From assembly GCA_964557115.1 (NCBI GenBank), contig CAZKYO010000014.1:6144-70143 (forward strand): 64,000 nt of DNA, written 5' to 3'. Shown here piece by piece: positions 2,378-64,000 of this stretch. A program made the translations under genes and the position numbers. This DNA comes from an uncultured Gemmatimonadaceae bacterium (lineage in GTDB: Bacteria > Gemmatimonadota > Gemmatimonadetes > Gemmatimonadales > GWC2-71-9). The notes under the pieces were generated by a model. It was not told the DNA's origin and did no database searches. It worked only from the letters and a program-made list of their open reading frames with translations. Position 1 is the stretch's first letter. Each line of letters starts with the position of its first letter.

Positions 2378-5039
<2,662 letters not shown>

Positions 5040-9679: not shown

Positions 9680-10515
9680 GCGTGCGACTCCTGGTCGCGG
9701 CCGTCTGGCCGCAGCGGGGTGGGGTCCGGCTCGTCGGCCGGGAGGAAATCGGTGTCGTCGTCGCCGCGGGTGAGGCCGTCCCACAGCGCCCGGAGGAGAC
9801 CGTAGGCGACGTAGGTGATCCCGAGCGGGAAGAGGAAGTGCTCCGGGACCAGCAGGCCGCCGGCGAGCACCAGCAGGTACACCGCGAGTCCGGCCAGTCG
9901 CTCGGCGCTCCCGAAGCCCGCCGCGGGCCAGCGCGGGTACTGCACGTTGCTGACCATCAGCACCGCGAGCAGCAGCATCAGGATCGCGACGCCCTGGTGC
10001 TCGAAGTTGAGCGAGGCGAGCCGCGCCGTGTACCAGTCGGTGTGCGAGAACGCGTAGTACGTCGCCAGCGTCATCCCCGCCGACGGCGACGGCAGCCCGG
10101 TGAACCAGCCCGGCCGCCCGCGGCCGGACCCGGCCATGACGTTGAAGCGCGCCAGCCGGATCGCCGCCGCCATCACGTAGAAGTAGCAGATCAGCCAGGC
10201 GAAGCGGCCCGTCGCGCTGAACTCCTGCATGTAGAGCAGCAGCGCCGGGGCCACGCCGAAGGAGGTGAGGTCCACCAGCGAGTCGAGCTCGGCGCCGAAG
10301 CGGGAGCCGGCGTTGCTGAGCCGCGCGATCCGGCCGTCGAGCATGTCGAGGACGCCGGCGAAGACGATGAACCACCCGGCCCAGGAGAAGTTGCCGTTGT
10401 AGGCCGAGACGATCGCCCAGATCCCGAAGAAGAGGTTGCCGAGCGTGAAGGCGCTGGGCACCACCACCACCACGCGCCGCATGCGGCCGCTGCCGCCGTT
10501 CCGCTCGGTCCTCAC
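9676..10515 (-). CDS. pssA: CDP-diacylglycerol--serine O-phosphatidyltransferase
   Basis: PSAFTLGNLFFG, CDP-alcohol motif DMLDGRIAR...G..LDSLVD, LARFN, FTGLPSP. Start is GTG 10515 (overlapping the psd stop) or ATG 10482. Confidence 0.92.
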   Translation of the reverse strand: MRTERNGGSGRMRRVVVVVPSAFTLGNLFFGIWAIVSAYNGNFSWAGWFIVFAGVLDMLDGRIARLSNAGSRFGAELDSLVDLTSFGVAPALLLYMQEFSATGRFAWLICYFYVMAAAIRLARFNVMAGSGRGRPGWFTGLPSPSAGMTLATYYAFSHTDWYTARLASLNFEHQGVAILMLLLAVLMVSNVQYPRWPAAGFGSAERLAGLAVYLLVLAGGLLVPEHFLFPLGITYVAYGLLRALWDGLTRGDDDTDFLPADEPDPTPLRPDGRDQESHA

Positions 10516-11138
10516 GGCCACTCCGCGAGCACCGTCTGCCCGGCCCGGGTGATGTCGCCGAGGGCGACCTTGACCGGCGTGCCGGCGGGGAGGAAGACGT
10601 CGACCCGGGAGCCGAAGCGGATCAGCCCGAGCCGCTCGCCCTGCACGGCGGCGAAGCCGACCTGGTGGTCGGTCACGATGCGGCGGGCCACCAGCCCGGC
10701 GATCTGGCGCACCAGCAGCGTGCCGCGCGCGGTGCGCAGCCCGATGTCGCTCTGCTCGTTCTCGAGCGCGGCCTTCTCGACCGCGGCGTTGAAGAAGCGG
10801 CCGGCACGATAGGCGCGGTGGATCACCTCGCCGGTGACGGGATACCGGTTCACGTGGACGTCGAAGACGTTCATGAAGATCGACACTCGGGTCGCGGCGC
10901 CGCCCACGACGGTCGGCTCGTCGATCGGGATGATGCTGACGATGCGCCCGTCGGCCGGCGCGATCACGAACGCCTCGCCGCGCGGTCCCTGGCGCACCGG
11001 GTCGCGGAAGAACGCGACCACCCAGGCGGCGATCGGCAGCAGGATCAGCGCGGCGACCCACCAGCCGGCGAGCGCGAAGGCGAGCACGACGAGCCAGGCC
11101 AGCGCGATGAACGGGCGGCCTTCCGGGGCGATCCGCAT
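10512..11138 (-). CDS. psd: Phosphatidylserine decarboxylase proenzyme (short type)
   Basis: FFRDPVR, IAPADG, SIFMNVFDVHVNR, QIAGLVARRI, self-cleavage motif IRFGSRVD. Confidence 0.94.
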   Translation of the reverse strand: MRIAPEGRPFIALAWLVVLAFALAGWWVAALILLPIAAWVVAFFRDPVRQGPRGEAFVIAPADGRIVSIIPIDEPTVVGGAATRVSIFMNVFDVHVNRYPVTGEVIHRAYRAGRFFNAAVEKAALENEQSDIGLRTARGTLLVRQIAGLVARRIVTDHQVGFAAVQGERLGLIRFGSRVDVFLPAGTPVKVALGDITRAGQTVLAEWP

Positions 11139-12058: not shown

Positions 12059-13494
12059 ACCCGGAGCTCCGCGGCCGCGGCGCTCGTCGCGGCCGGCCGC
12101 GCGCGCGCGACGAGCGGATCGAGGAACTCCCGCAGGAACTCGCCGACCTGCTCCGGGGCACGGCCGACGTAGCGGGCCGGGTCGAGTTCGGCCTGGAGCC
12201 GGCGGGCGTCCACCGCGGCGAAGGCCGGGTCGCTCGCGAGGCGGTCGAGGAGGTCGTTCGGCGCGCCGCGGGCACTCGCCTCCGCGGCCGCCATCGAGTG
12301 GCCGCGGATCACCTCGTGCAGCGCCTGGCGGTCGCCGCCGGCCTGCACGCCGAGCATCAGCCATCGCTCGGTGGCCATGAACGGCATCTGCTCGGCCACG
12401 TGCCGCGCCACCACGCCGTCGCGCACCTCGAGCCCGGCGGCGATGTTGGCCGCGAGGAGCAGCACGGCGTCGGTCGCGAGGAACGCCTCGGGCAGGGTGA
12501 GTCGCCGGTTGGCGGAATCGTCGAGCGTCCGCTCGAGCCACTGGGCGGCGGCCGTGTGCGCCGCGTTCTGCTGCAGCGTGATGACGTGACGCGCCAGCGC
12601 CCCGATGCGCTCGGCGCGCATCGGGTTCCGCTTGTAGGCCATCGCGCTGGAGCCGATCTGCTCCGACTCGAACGGCTCGAGCAGCTCGCCCTCGTGCTGC
12701 AGCAACCGGAGGTCCGCGCCGAACTTCGCCGCCGACTGCGCGATGCCGCTGAGCACGTCGAGCACCCGGCTGTCGGCCTTGCGCGGGTAGGTCTGCCCGG
12801 TGACCGGGAAGACCCGGTCGTGGCCGAGTCGCCGCGCCACCTCGCGCTCGAGCTTGCGCACCGTCTCGCCGTTGCCGGCGAACAGCTCGAGGAACGACGC
12901 CTGCGTGCCGGTGGTCCCCTTGCAGCCCCGCAGCCGCCACTGGCCCAGCAGCTCGAGCAGCGCCTCCACGTCGAGCGCGAAGTCCTGCAGCCAGAGGGTC
13001 GCGCGCTTGCCCACCGTGGTGAGCTGCGCCGGCTGGAAGTGGGTGTAGGCGAGGCAGGGGAGGGCGGCATGGCGCTCGGCGACCTGGCGCAGCGCGTCGA
13101 TCACCGCCAGCAGGCGGCCGAGCACCAGCCGGAGGCCGTCGCGCAGGATCAGCCCGTCGGCGTTGTCGGTCACGAACGCGGACGTCGCGCCGAGGTGCAG
13201 GTAGGGCCGCGCCGCCGGGGCCTGCTCGCCGAACGCATGCACGTGGGCCATCACGTCGTGCCGGAAGCGCTTCTCGAACTCCGCGGCGCGGTCGAGGTCG
13301 GCGTCGTCGAGGTGCGCCCGCATCGCCTCCAGCGCGGCGTCGGGGATCTCGATGCCCAGCTGCCGCTCCGCCTCGGCGAGCGCGAGCCAGACCCGCCGCC
13401 ACTGGCCGATCCGGTGCGCCTCGCTCCAGAGGCGGAGCATCTCGGGCGAGGCGTAGCGCCCGGCCAGCGGGGAGTTCCAGCGTTCGTGGGTCAT
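12055..13494 (-). CDS. purB: Adenylosuccinate lyase
   Basis: SPLAGRYAS, RHDVMAHVH, HLGATSAFVTDN, THFQPAQLTTVGKR, signature GSSAMAYKRNP. Confidence 0.96.
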   Translation of the reverse strand: MTHERWNSPLAGRYASPEMLRLWSEAHRIGQWRRVWLALAEAERQLGIEIPDAALEAMRAHLDDADLDRAAEFEKRFRHDVMAHVHAFGEQAPAARPYLHLGATSAFVTDNADGLILRDGLRLVLGRLLAVIDALRQVAERHAALPCLAYTHFQPAQLTTVGKRATLWLQDFALDVEALLELLGQWRLRGCKGTTGTQASFLELFAGNGETVRKLEREVARRLGHDRVFPVTGQTYPRKADSRVLDVLSGIAQSAAKFGADLRLLQHEGELLEPFESEQIGSSAMAYKRNPMRAERIGALARHVITLQQNAAHTAAAQWLERTLDDSANRRLTLPEAFLATDAVLLLAANIAAGLEVRDGVVARHVAEQMPFMATERWLMLGVQAGGDRQALHEVIRGHSMAAAEASARGAPNDLLDRLASDPAFAAVDARRLQAELDPARYVGRAPEQVGEFLREFLDPLVARARPAATSAAAAELRV

Positions 13495-61285: not shown

Positions 61286-62470
61286 ATGTGCGCCATCGCT
61301 GTGCGTCGATCGAGACTGCGTGAGGCCTTCGCTTCGTCCAGGTTCGCCCTGATCGTGCTGGCGGCAGGCCTTGGGGGATGTGACGAGGAGTCGACGATCA
61401 TCGTGAATGTCGTCGGTGCCGGTGACGGTTTTGGCCAGGTCACCGGCTCCAACACGACCACTGGGCTGGCTGAGATCCACTGCACTGTCGACGCGGGGCA
61501 GACCTCACTCTCCGATTGCCAGGAGTCCATCTACAAGCTCGGTGGATCGTACACCCTGGTGGCACAGCCTGTGGGCGGCAGCTCCTTCACCGGCTGGTTC
61601 TGCAGCAGTACCGGCGGGGACTGCACCGGTTGCACCGGGACGGGCAATTGCGTCCTGACCTTCACCGAGGCCGGCACCACGGACATCAGGTTCACGGTGA
61701 CGGCACGATTCGATGCCCTGCCCGGCGGCGCCTGTCCCCTGAGCCAGCCGTTGGCGCGCTGGACGATGGATGGCAACACGGCGGATGTGGTCGGGACCGC
61801 GGACGGGCCTGCGAACCTGCCATCGGGAATCTCGGGGGCAATCGACCGCAAGCTGCTTTCGGTCGGTGCGCTCCAGTTTGACGGCACGGCCGGCTTCAAT
61901 GTTGGTACGGCCACGACCTTCGACAATCTCACGCTGCCGTTCACCATCGCCGTGTGGCTCTATCGCGAGGCGGGGCCGACCAGCGCCTCGATCTTCGCCA
62001 CCGATCCGATCCTCAGCTCCTATCAGGGGATCTGGATGGGGTGGGGAGCCAACACCCTCGGCATCTCGTTTGGCGATGGGGGCGGGGGCGGGCCTTCGCA
62101 CCGGCGGTCTGCCGCGGGTGCCCAGGTGCCGGTGGGGCAGTGGACGCACATCGCTGCCGTCGTGACCGGGCCCGATTCGCTCGGCTTCAAGCTCTACGTC
62201 AACGGGACGGCGATTGCCCACACCTACGAGGGCACCGGCGGCCCGCTGGTGCATTCGGCGAGCGCCGGGCCGAACATCGGCAGCTGGCAACTGGTCGCGG
62301 CCAACCAGCCCTGGAAGGGGCGGATGGACGACCTTCGGCTCTACAACTGTGCACTGAGCGCCGTGGACGTCACGACCTTGCAGGCGCTTATCGCGAGTCC
62401 GTCGCAGGCGCCGGTTGGTCGGTTCAATTCACATGGATCAGGCAGAAGCGGGGTCCTCGTCCTGCCCTAG
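61286..62470 (+). CDS. Lipoprotein with Cys-rich N-terminal module and LamG/pentraxin-like domain
   Basis: AAGGAG SD, lipobox LGGC, FTIAVW, WTHIAAV, KLYVNG, WKGRMDDLRLYNCALS. Confidence 0.8.
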   Translation: MCAIAVRRSRLREAFASSRFALIVLAAGLGGCDEESTIIVNVVGAGDGFGQVTGSNTTTGLAEIHCTVDAGQTSLSDCQESIYKLGGSYTLVAQPVGGSSFTGWFCSSTGGDCTGCTGTGNCVLTFTEAGTTDIRFTVTARFDALPGGACPLSQPLARWTMDGNTADVVGTADGPANLPSGISGAIDRKLLSVGALQFDGTAGFNVGTATTFDNLTLPFTIAVWLYREAGPTSASIFATDPILSSYQGIWMGWGANTLGISFGDGGGGGPSHRRSAAGAQVPVGQWTHIAAVVTGPDSLGFKLYVNGTAIAHTYEGTGGPLVHSASAGPNIGSWQLVAANQPWKGRMDDLRLYNCALSAVDVTTLQALIASPSQAPVGRFNSHGSGRSGVLVLP

Positions 62471-62543: not shown

Positions 62544-63203
62544 CTAGGCGGGGGCCTTGTCCGACGCGCCTTGGCGACCGAAGCCGGGTTCGGGCGACCA
62601 CAGCGCGAGGCAGAACAGCACCAGTCCCAGGATGCCGAATACGGCCTTGACTTCCCATACCGGGATCAGCCAGCGCGAATTCGAGGTCGACAGGATGGTG
62701 CTCAGGGGCCAGACGGCGACGATCGGTCCATAGGTCAGGGCGGTCGCGAGTCCGGTCAGGCCTGCCCGTCGCCGCTGCGGGGCCGAGAGGTGCGTCCCGC
62801 TCCGCACCAGGAGCGCGATGCCGACGGAAGCAAGCATGATCGCATGGATGGGCGCGGCAAAATTTGAAAAGCCGGTCTCCTGCTCGCGTAGGACGATCCC
62901 GAACAGCCAGACTGCGATGAAGGCGAGGAAGAGAGGCCACCTAAAGCGCCTGACAGACTCCATCACCTGGAATCCCAATAGAGCCGTGAGCCCGAGCCAC
63001 ATGGAGAGCGGGTAGGAGAACCAAGTGATCCACCAGGTCCCGGTGTGCCTCGACCCGAGGTAGGCCAGGGCAAAGTTTTCAAGCGCCATCATGGTGACCC
63101 AGATCCACACTGCTCTGCGATCGAGGTCCTTCGCCGCCCCGCGGGACAGCCCGATCAGCACGGGGAGCGGGCTCAGGTACACGCCGACTTCCGAGATGTA
63201 CAT
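62544..63203 (-). CDS. Hypothetical seven-transmembrane protein
   Basis: 219 aa with seven hydrophobic segments by eye. Starts 3 nt after the upstream gene's stop. Lower GC than the core. Confidence 0.8.
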   Translation of the reverse strand: MYISEVGVYLSPLPVLIGLSRGAAKDLDRRAVWIWVTMMALENFALAYLGSRHTGTWWITWFSYPLSMWLGLTALLGFQVMESVRRFRWPLFLAFIAVWLFGIVLREQETGFSNFAAPIHAIMLASVGIALLVRSGTHLSAPQRRRAGLTGLATALTYGPIVAVWPLSTILSTSNSRWLIPVWEVKAVFGILGLVLFCLALWSPEPGFGRQGASDKAPA

Positions 63204-63206
63204 AGG

Positions 63207-63515
63207 CTAGTTCCCGCGGAGCGGGCTGTTCTGATCACAAAAGGGGGGGCACGGCAGGAACTCCTCAAGGATGAGCCCCTGAGTGATGTCCTTGCCATCG
63301 TTGTCGATCCCGACCATCACCGGGGTGACCGCACCATCGGTCTTGGTACCCATATAGACGCGGATTCCCGTGACCCCGGGTTGCGCCAGAAGCTCCCGAA
63401 GTTCCTCGCCGACGTCCAAGGCCCACGGCCCGATCGGGCTCTTTTCCGATTCCCGGTACCGCTTGGTCAGCTCGACCGCCTGCTCCAGCGAAATCCGGTG
63501 ACTCGAATCAGCCAT
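63207..63515 (-). CDS. Small hypothetical protein with C-terminal PCPPFC motif
   Basis: GGAGAG SD before ATG 63515. ISLEQAVELTKRYR...LLAQPGVTGIRVYMG...VMVGIDNDGKDITQGLILEEFLPCPPFCDQNSPL. Confidence 0.85.
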   Translation of the reverse strand: MADSSHRISLEQAVELTKRYRESEKSPIGPWALDVGEELRELLAQPGVTGIRVYMGTKTDGAVTPVMVGIDNDGKDITQGLILEEFLPCPPFCDQNSPLRGN

Positions 63516-63555
63516 CAGGCTCTCCTGATCGAGTGTTCTCACGGGGGGAAGGGGA

Positions 63556-63601
63556 ATGTTGTCGCCACGGAGGACCGATGTCCACTAGGAAAAATCCTAG
63601 T
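63556..63601 (-). promoter_or_regulatory. Candidate activated promoter: palindrome ACTAGGA-AAAA-TCCTAGT abutting TGGACA-N17-CAACAT
   Basis: Perfect 7-4-7 inverted repeat at 63584-63601. On the minus strand a -35-like element at 63584-63579 and a -10-like element at 63561-63556, with exactly 17 bp between them. Confidence 0.65.
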
Positions 63602-63742
63602 CGGGCCCCGGGGGCCTCCGTTTCTGGCCGGGGCGTTGCACGACCGAAACATCGCTCCCGTCCGCCCATGCCGTGGATCCCTCGCGCGGCCCTGCGTGAT
63701 AGCTTGCAGCGTGGTGCGGACCCTCTCCCAGGGAGCGTTCCA

Positions 63743-64000
63743 ATGGACCCCGCCGACATCGGATTCCTGAAGGCTGCGATCGCGTTCATCCTCGTCGCCG
63801 GGACGAGCCTCACCGCCGTCAAGCTCTGGCTCCGGGCGCGGACCGGCGCACCCGCCTTGTCTGACGCCGCGCTCGACGCGCTCCGCGAGGAGCAGGACGA
63901 GTACCGGGCGATCACCGACGCACGGATCGCCGAGCTCGAGGAGCGAGTCGACTTCGCCGAGCGGCGGCTGGTGCAGGACGCCGATCCGCTCCGGCGGATC
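63743..64000 (+). CDS. Small membrane-anchored coiled-coil protein (PspB-like tail), 3'-truncated by window edge
   Basis: GGGAG SD, MDPADIGFLKAAIAFILVAG...RIAELEERVDFAERRL. Extended -10-like TGATAGCTT at 63697-63705. Confidence 0.7.
   Translation, partial: MDPADIGFLKAAIAFILVAGTSLTAVKLWLRARTGAPALSDAALDALREEQDEYRAITDARIAELEERVDFAERRLVQDADPLRRI

Follow-up and report, generated by a model that had tools for sequence, protein, structure and literature searches.

Two-component systems are known in many forms, and several of them lend themselves to comparison with the locus described here. In ComQXPA of Bacillus subtilis, the ComX pheromone is accompanied by the HisKA_3-class kinase ComP and the NarL-type regulator ComA, and the ComA box (TTGCGG-N4-CCGCAA) is a 6-N4-6 inverted repeat, a design known for dimers of the NarL family. 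The agr system of staphylococci is an autoregulated four-gene operon in which a small gene adjoins that of a polytopic membrane protein, and the pherotype loci of both agr and comQXP contain, between conserved flanks, a hypervariable block that takes in the small gene together with the sensor half of the gene beside it. In UhpABC (UhpC sensor, UhpB, UhpA) and LiaFSR/VraTSR, a separate membrane protein feeds or gates a HisKA_3-class kinase and its NarL-type regulator, and LiaR autoregulates via a palindrome. In NreABC of staphylococci, a kinase and a regulator of these classes are modulated by a small soluble accessory protein, NreA. We herein describe a two-gene cassette near one end of a stretch of 64,000 nucleotides (nt) from an uncultured Gemmatimonadaceae bacterium (contig CAZKYO010000014.1; the whole 64-kb stretch is referred to as the window). 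The cassette encodes a small protein with a CPPxC motif, S, and a stand-alone membrane protein with seven transmembrane (TM) helices, the 7-TM protein, and it constitutes the input half of a signalling module of four genes that is conserved and as yet unnamed. What is new is the input side, made up of two families that have no Pfam or NCBIfam model and no solved structure. The finding is thus a two-component system whose input, novel in kind, is formed by two proteins, and the window holds an unusual copy consisting of the input only.

The module was defined from about 70 related loci in Gemmatimonadota, Bacteroidota and Zixibacteria. Its genes encode, in this order, S, the 7-TM protein, a HisKA_3 kinase and a REC-GerE (NarL/LuxR) regulator, the kinase being a protein of about 250 amino acids (aa) with one TM helix, HisKA_3 and HATPase_c domains and no sensor domain. 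The full order is present in L007, L012, L013, L018 and L019 from Gemmatimonadales as well as in L023, L025, L026, L028 and L149, and loci L008, L009 and L017 end at contig edges. Among Bacteroidota genomes, at least 42 of the 53 loci hold the full module, the others being truncated by contig ends or partly detected, and the same order was recovered in 4/4 Bacteroidota-type contigs when the search started from the 7-TM side. The 7-TM gene follows S directly in every locus with downstream sequence; in the Flavobacterium type, its open reading frame (ORF) is present and too diverged for the 7-TM profile. The original prediction for this DNA, made from its sequence alone, had pointed to pairs of CPPxC and 7-TM proteins beside a histidine kinase and a NarL/LuxR regulator in Bacteroidota. 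Such pairs do occur there, and in Gemmatimonadota as well: the S and 7-TM genes are always paired, and in the relatives they come with two-component genes. The prediction knew of no described function for them, and in our literature searches neither the S family nor the 7-TM family was found described.

Variations on the module are instructive. The order is permuted in L015, L016 and L021, with kinase and regulator preceding S and the 7-TM protein in L015 and L016. In a Zixibacteria metagenome-assembled genome (L014, 6908-7795), kinase and regulator are replaced by a single PAS-GerE protein, which combines a hydrophobic segment at its N-terminus with a PAS domain and a GerE helix-turn-helix (HTH), and therefore the output of the module is always a LuxR-type (GerE) HTH protein. 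Some Bacteroidota loci carry two or three tandem 7-TM paralogues in the interval from S to the kinase (L020/L194 682-2390, L165 214-3048, L196 and L200). The S and 7-TM genes, 3 nt apart in the window, are separated by 1 nt or overlap in relatives. The kinase ORF in turn shares sequence, in the -1 frame, with the 3' end of the 7-TM gene (L007 10931-11024, L008 ~3050-3147, L025 5618-5654, L028 1697-1736). In Bacteroidota this overlap is about 40 nt; in Gemmatimonadota it can reach about 90 nt, counted from the first start codon. The tail of the 7-TM ORF that lies out of frame consists of low-complexity Ser/Pro sequence. A single frameshifted 7-TM/kinase gene was considered and rejected, since more than 40 loci keep the two frames apart, with gene calls that overlap. 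None of the modules examined was found to contain an exporter, a protease or a modifying enzyme. Of the locus alignments, A3 and A7 were too diverse to serve as search queries, and a search with A8 gave no relatives. A hybrid PAS-HisKA-HATPase_c-REC kinase is encoded divergently from the module in L007 (8245-9816, minus strand), L009 and L019.

Compared with the described systems, the module appears to work most like ComQXPA or agr, and also like UhpABC, LiaFSR and NreABC, and it is a member of none of them because the defining components of each are absent. It shares with ComQXPA the classes of kinase and regulator, the 6-N4-6 type of operator, a small gene placed directly before that of a membrane sensor, and hypervariable signal and sensor parts between conserved flanks. 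On the other hand, ComX derives from a precursor of about 55 aa whereas S is a predicted folded domain of 100 aa, the ComP sensor is fused to its kinase whereas the module encodes its 7-TM protein and its kinase as two polypeptides, the hosts of the module are Gram-negative phyla, and the window copy has no adjoining kinase or regulator. Neither a ComQ-type prenyltransferase nor a short ComX precursor nor ComP was found in the window locus or the related loci. With agr it has in common the autoregulated four-gene operon, the small gene beside a polytopic membrane protein and the hypervariable block over signal and sensor half. However, AgrB belongs to a peptidase family and the 7-TM protein gave no match in Pfam, AgrC carries its sensor on the same polypeptide as an HPK10 kinase and AgrA is a LytTR protein where the modules use HisKA_3 and GerE, and the autoinducing peptide is a thiolactone rather than a disulfide loop. 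Although UhpABC and LiaFSR/VraTSR also place a separate membrane protein ahead of the kinase, UhpC is a 12-TM protein of the major facilitator superfamily, LiaF has a domain family of its own, no S-like protein occurs in these systems, and no sequence or fold relation of the cassette proteins to UhpABC or LiaFSR components was detected. NreABC resembles the module in its small accessory protein, but NreA is a nitrate-binding GAF domain, NreB is cytoplasmic with an Fe-S cluster, and there is no 7-TM component.

The S family is large. A profile search over cluster representatives, with clusters taken at the 50% identity level, yielded 2,004 clusters at E<=1e-3, of which 827 reached E<=1e-10, while a word-indexed search returned seven S proteins and one further 7-TM protein and nothing more. 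All named members are annotated "hypothetical protein". The family signature reads HRISL...LTKRYR...ELLxQPG...RxYxG...VGxD...CPPFC...SPL, with CPPxC near-universal, and the window S protein carries it (HxIxL...RxYxG...VGxD...CPPxC) and is conserved with its relatives over its full length. Conserved positions run through the whole protein (H6, I8, A13, L43, Q45, R52, Y54, G69, G80, C89, P90, P91, C93 and L99), R52, C89, P90 and C93 being invariant over 53 diverse members. CPPxC and the subsequent S-x-L-N form the most conserved part of the family, and the N-terminal 85 residues show conservation equal to that of the tail. The window protein ends in ...LPCPPFCDQNSPLRGN; the CPPxC ending had been read correctly in the original prediction, with the final three residues omitted. 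Many members are tandem two-domain proteins, several of which retain one CPPxC motif only.

S is predicted to be a small, acidic, folded alpha/beta domain. Its AlphaFold2 model has a beta-alpha-alpha-beta-beta core, with CPPFC placed in a low-confidence tail. Compared with Pfam and NCBIfam, alone and via the 53 family members, S gave no match above threshold; a profile search of the PDB gave no sequence relative, Foldseek returned no match to the model better than E 0.3, and no known metal-binding or redox fold emerged from the structure, fold and family searches. Library matches of S and 7-TM proteins that included ferrochelatase, DUF2427 and exosortase XrtW were set aside as sub-threshold noise. 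The window S protein has no signal peptide, in line with the original prediction, and in 72 of 74 sampled S genes a signal peptide is ruled out by an in-frame stop directly upstream of the domain. Clear Sec signal peptides are nevertheless present in the S proteins of L149 (5022-5465) and L193 (827-1300), which lie inside ordinary four-gene modules, and about a fifth of the top 150 matches of the family have an N-terminal Sec signal or membrane anchor.

The AlphaFold2 model of the 7-TM protein, computed with 24 homologues, consists of seven helices with a predicted local distance difference test (pLDDT) score of 77 and a predicted template modelling score of 0.74, and the Lys/Arg bias of the loops predicts an N-out, C-in topology, in which the outward loops are only about 7-12 residues long. 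The ORFs and these helices agree with the 102-aa protein, 3-nt gap and 219-aa 7-TM protein first proposed for the cassette. The window protein is collinear with the 7-TM proteins of complete modules (alignment E 1e-4 to 1e-8). No family above threshold was found in Pfam or NCBIfam for the protein alone or via its 24 family members, and a profile search of the PDB gave no sequence relative. Exosortase XrtW (E 0.008; 14.6 bits against a cut-off of 425 bits) and DUF2427 (a Pfam match below cut-off) were rejected, and no membership of the G protein-coupled receptors (GPCRs) or rhodopsins is claimed, Foldseek having given generic seven-helix bundles only (E>=0.06); 7TMR-DISM, HisKA_7TM, exosortase, rhodopsin and GPCR proteins showed no significant sequence or fold match. 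A match of either cassette protein to a characterised enzyme or transporter family, against which the first proposal had been staked, was thus not found in Pfam, NCBIfam or the PDB. In high-GC contigs of Gemmatimonadota, the 7-TM gene escapes public annotation: L007 has no call for it (10314-11024), and L009 has a called ORF on the wrong strand (1384-2073) in place of the gene at 1537-2247. This is probably why a protein search finds few 7-TM relatives.

The cassette was further compared with its counterpart in a sister organism (represented by L010 and L011, with one and the same S protein). Flanking genes show 87-96% aa identity, with 0.16-0.44 synonymous (dS) and 0.016-0.081 nonsynonymous (dN) substitutions per site, as against 73% identity (dS 1.12, dN 0.20) for S as a whole and 59% (dS 0.80, dN 0.33) for the 7-TM protein. 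The divergence climbs through S (residues 67-99: 61%, dN 0.38, dS not available with the proportion of synonymous differences saturated at 0.83), is maximal at the start of the 7-TM protein (residues 1-50: 34%, dS 2.1, dN 0.66) and drops back to the level of the flanks over its last third, which comprises TM6-7 (residues 151-219: 86%, dS 0.36, dN 0.09); 7-TM residues 1-150 are 47% identical. Since dN/dS lies below 1 (0.15-0.42; 0.18 for S and 0.41 for the 7-TM gene), both genes are under purifying selection and not decaying. Complete modules tell a similar story. Of the four components, it is the 7-TM protein that has diverged most in 27 of 33 related module pairs, with mean identities of 0.68 for S, 0.56 for the 7-TM protein, 0.64 for the kinase and 0.73 for the regulator; in one example pair the respective values are 0.81, 0.60, 0.85 and 0.89. 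The sequence comparison supports a co-divergence of the variable parts of S and the 7-TM protein as would be expected for a ligand-receptor pair, and the pattern resembles that of the agr and comQXP pherotype loci.

Upstream of S lies a perfect 7-N4-7 palindrome, ACTAGGAAAAATCCTAGT, 68 nt from the S start codon and 141 nt from the start of a divergent 94-aa gene. On the gene strand it overlaps by one base the TGGACA of a putative promoter, and its centre falls near -43.5 if TGGACA-N17-CAACAT is indeed the promoter; the original prediction of a perfect palindrome abutting this weak promoter, centred near -43, agrees with the sequence, and the weakness of the promoter with a consensus scan that makes no call there. 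A candidate site for a GerE-type HTH dimer in such a position would recall class II activation by LuxR-type proteins, whose sites are centred near -42 and overlap the -35. In the sister organism, the palindrome arms, TGGAC and CAACAT are identical, whereas the palindrome spacer differs and about 60% of the 17-nt promoter spacer has changed, a combination that looks like the footprint of a promoter. The whole intergenic region of 227 nt has 82-91% nucleotide identity to the sister, compared with a dS of about 1.1 for the S gene, and palindrome, -35, -10 and ribosome-binding site (RBS) account for part of this conservation only. A cis-regulatory RNA was considered here and rejected: Rfam gave no RNA family over the conserved region, and the 5' leader folds no better than shuffled sequences.

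The weight of the palindrome derives from the relatives: where S heads the module, palindromes usually occur 70-200 nt upstream, mostly in repeated form. Three or four copies of CTGGAGgtaaCTCCAG at 24-bp spacing precede the modules of L007, L009 and L019, two copies of CTATGAgatcTCATAG precede that of L008, two or three copies of CTAGTAnnnnTAyTAG-like palindromes are found in L012, L013, L017 and L018, and Bacteroidota loci have CAGTAGAACTACTG, CCGTATnnATACGG and TGGTATCAnTACCA in two copies each. Exact repeats of 14-16 nt inside 200 nt are far beyond chance. In L015 and L016, where S comes after the regulator gene, the palindrome is absent. The window has one copy where relatives usually have 2-4, and its CTAGGAttttTCCTAG fits the 6/7-N4-6/7 operator class of the modules; the proposal that homologues should carry palindromes upstream has been borne out by repeats of the same design. 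The RcsAB box of the enterobacterial RcsA/RcsB system, for which the original prediction quoted the consensus TAAGAATATTCCTA, agrees with the window palindrome at 11/14 core positions, a resemblance only, and the operators of the module's own relatives are the better comparison. In L007, L009 and L019, the repeated palindromes sit between the module and the divergent hybrid kinase mentioned above. A Gemmatimonadota scaffold (L095, ~1130-1400) shows dense short GACTAGGAC- and GTCCTAGTC-like repeats around one chance match to the operator. In addition, AACTAGGA-N4-TCCTAGTGGAC was met in apparently intergenic positions on soil metagenome contigs of GC content 0.56-0.62 (L150/L154/L158, L155/L157, L152 and L156), which are unrelated and have no family genes nearby; the number of matches is about that expected by chance.

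The window copy stands apart from these modules. No single-TM HisKA_3 plus HATPase_c kinase was found in the window or in the 10 kb beyond it (L001), as expected from the suggestion that the cassette had become detached. The window and its sister carry the only copies that lack kinase and regulator, and they are the only loci in which an unrelated convergent gene follows the S/7-TM pair. The sister organism lacks both the Laminin_G_3 (LamG) gene downstream of the cassette and a 371-aa gene upstream of it (L001 8367-9482), its cassette lying directly between the 94-aa gene and a glyoxalase gene, and since two neighbouring genes are missing there, the neighbourhood is prone to insertions and deletions (indels) and forms an indel hot spot.

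We consider it somewhat probable that the cassette works as the input half of the module, with the 7-TM protein as sensor, S as its partner or ligand and, for the window copy, a kinase and a regulator acting in trans. The 7-TM protein would be a membrane sensor that controls the sensor-less kinase via contacts in the membrane, for which its conserved TM6-TM7 end is the likely surface. S may be a partner or ligand dedicated to it and co-translated with it, and would touch the variable TM1-TM5 half with the C-terminal third that carries the CPPxC loop. The phosphorylated regulator would bind the palindromes and autoregulate the operon, and the operator position could be read as positive feedback at the cassette. 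The window copy probably signals through a kinase encoded elsewhere and is most likely driven by a NarL-type regulator also encoded elsewhere, because a lone palindrome that abuts the -35 and is centred near -43.5 has been retained without kinase or regulator. By a small margin, we prefer S as a whole folded protein partner over a processed, diffusible peptide. Of the signal/receptor module originally proposed, the modular reading of two input genes plus kinase and regulator has thus stood. Its processed, disulfide-closed peptide is not supported, given the whole-length conservation, the predicted fold, the tandem forms, the 72 leaderless genes of 74 and the lack of an exporter or protease.

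Several results weigh against this picture. No REC-GerE regulator lies in the window or in the 10 kb beyond (L001), and control in trans is an assumption, as no partner genes were found within these 64 kb + 10 kb. The S model has a pLDDT of 66, falling below 50 in the CPPFC tail, and the leaderless majority (72/74) and the Sec-signal members (L149, L193 and about a fifth of the top 150) point to contradictory locations. The hypervariability in the clade of the window was seen in a single organism pair. At the operator, a strict sigma-70 consensus scan makes no promoter call at TGGACA-N17-CAACAT, and the palindrome by itself is not remarkable: when upstream regions of 200 nt are shuffled, about 8% of them show an inverted repeat with 7-bp arms, and perfect 7-N4-7 repeats number 20 in the window as compared with about 14 in shuffles. 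Scanning genome contigs for ACTAGGA-N4-TCCTAGT gave more than 119 matches, mostly chance, none of which adjoins an S/7-TM family gene and three of which have a NarL-type regulator within 8 kb, about the chance expectation; a metagenome scan for the operator plus GGAC gave 9 matches, none of which is linked to a family gene or adds an allele.

Other readings of the locus deserve consideration. As a tentative possibility, S might be a cytoplasmic redox or metal co-sensor that uses its two Cys (four in a dimer or tandem) and docks on the inner face of the 7-TM protein and kinase, much as NreA does. The leaderless state of S in nearly all loci, its presumed nature as a small acidic domain and the translational coupling of its gene to the 7-TM gene (3-nt gap; 1 nt or overlap in relatives) would suit such a role, and tandem proteins with two CPPxC motifs would offer four Cys ligands. 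However, several tandem proteins hold only one motif, no known metal-binding or redox fold was detected, and Sec-signal members occur in the same module beside 7-TM proteins of the same predicted topology.

It is unlikely that S is an exported precursor or a secreted protein signal from which a disulfide-closed CPPxC loop is released and sensed outside by the 7-TM protein, an arrangement that would amount to autoinducing, pherotype-like signalling between cells. The same Sec-signal proteins (L149, L193) speak for it, because they imply that the S domain can work outside the cytoplasm, as do the nearly invariant Cys pair, the hypervariable S C-terminus and 7-TM sensor half between conserved flanks, for which agr and comQXP offer parallels, and an operator position that suits activation and hence feedback. 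Mature pheromones are usually the most variable part, though, whereas CPPxC and S-x-L-N are the most conserved part of S; moreover, the N-terminal 85 residues are conserved like the tail and predicted to fold, tandem two-domain forms exist, 72 of the 74 sampled genes have no room for a signal peptide, no module encodes an exporter, protease or modifying enzyme, and the outward loops of the 7-TM protein are short. The loop chemistry is feasible, and feasibility is all that the parallel offers: a natural conopeptide carries a C-P-P-F-C loop closed by a single disulfide (PMC9409646). Altogether, the exported peptide is a minority reading, and the cytoplasmic co-sensor is a comparable rival. Quite unlikely is the wider proposal of a self-signal/receptor system undescribed in Gram-negative phyla, in which the leaderless S or its disulfide-closed CPPxC tail is exported and read by the variable half of the 7-TM protein. 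If true, export might run through the 7-TM protein itself and would serve strain-specific, pherotype-like communication in Gemmatimonadota and Bacteroidota, and copies without kinase and regulator would be extra signal/receptor alleles for a distant kinase and regulator, maybe eavesdroppers or decoys.

We regard it as very unlikely that the palindrome serves another regulator, or the divergent 94-aa gene, rather than a NarL-type protein. The shared intergenic region is conserved throughout (82-91%), and identical operator plus GGAC strings occur in the unrelated soil contigs away from any family gene; yet the 6/7-N4-6/7 design and the CTAG-type half-sites match the operators of complete modules, which encode their own REC-GerE protein, and the palindrome abuts the -35 of the S promoter at a distance of 141 nt from the 94-aa gene. 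A decaying remnant after loss of kinase and regulator, with the palindrome as relic or coincidence, is highly improbable: the absence of both partners from the window and the 10 kb beyond, the indels around the locus (LamG and 371-aa genes missing in the sister) and a palindrome that alone is within chance are outweighed by two ORFs intact in two lineages at dS ~1 with dN/dS of 0.18 and 0.41, by the conserved RBS, -35, -10 and palindrome arms beside a changed promoter spacer, and by the 86% conservation of TM6-TM7, as if a partner contact had been kept.

For the input half of the module, the implications reach beyond one contig. The S family comprises about 2,000 clusters, and the order of the four genes hardly varies throughout Bacteroidota and Gemmatimonadota, phyla that abound in soil and in water. 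Should the two input proteins form a ligand-receptor pair, they would stand for a principle of sensing that is both new and common among these phyla, and it might be protein- or peptide-based self-signalling. In practical terms, a testable operator class has been defined, and attention is drawn to a 7-TM gene that gene callers often miss in high-GC genomes. A cultured strain, Parafilimonas terrae DSM 28286, carries two modules.

Table 1. Position of the cassette, its candidate control elements and its neighbours in the window.
Feature	Position	Strand	Remarks
S gene	63207..63515	(-)	small protein, 102 aa; ATG start; CPPFC protein
7-TM gene	62544..63203	(-)	219 aa, stand-alone; begins 3 nt past the S stop codon
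Hypervariable segment	62754..63317	(-)	S residues 67-102 and 7-TM residues 1-150 (TM1-TM5)
Shine-Dalgarno AGGAG	63522..63526	(-)	6 nt 5' of the S ATG; kept in the sister organism
Putative promoter	63556..63584	(-)	TGGACA 63579-63584, 17-nt spacer, CAACAT 63556-63561
Palindrome ACTAGGA-N4-TCCTAGT	63584..63601	.	perfect 7-N4-7; candidate operator for a NarL/LuxR-type dimer
Intergenic region	63516..63742		227 nt, shared by the cassette and the 94-aa gene
94-aa protein gene	63743..64000	(+)	membrane-anchored coiled-coil protein; divergent; truncated by the window end
Laminin_G_3 (LamG) gene	61286..62470	(+)	convergent; 3' of the cassette

The composition of the cassette differs from that of its surroundings. 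Its lower GC content, claimed earlier from a few lines counted by hand, was measured at 0.60-0.64 against 0.68-0.74 nearby, and GC at third codon positions is 0.80 and 0.84 in the two cassette genes against 0.91-0.93 in flanking genes. Horizontal acquisition of the cassette is only suggested, the lower GC and the excess divergence being the sole hints of it. Elsewhere in the window (12535-12629, plus strand), ARAGORN calls a 95-nt tRNA-Ser(GCT) within several long ORFs; Rfam reports no tRNA there at gathering or relaxed thresholds, and the call is probably a false positive. The 94-aa protein, for which a Pfam scan gave no match, is 90% identical in the sister organism.

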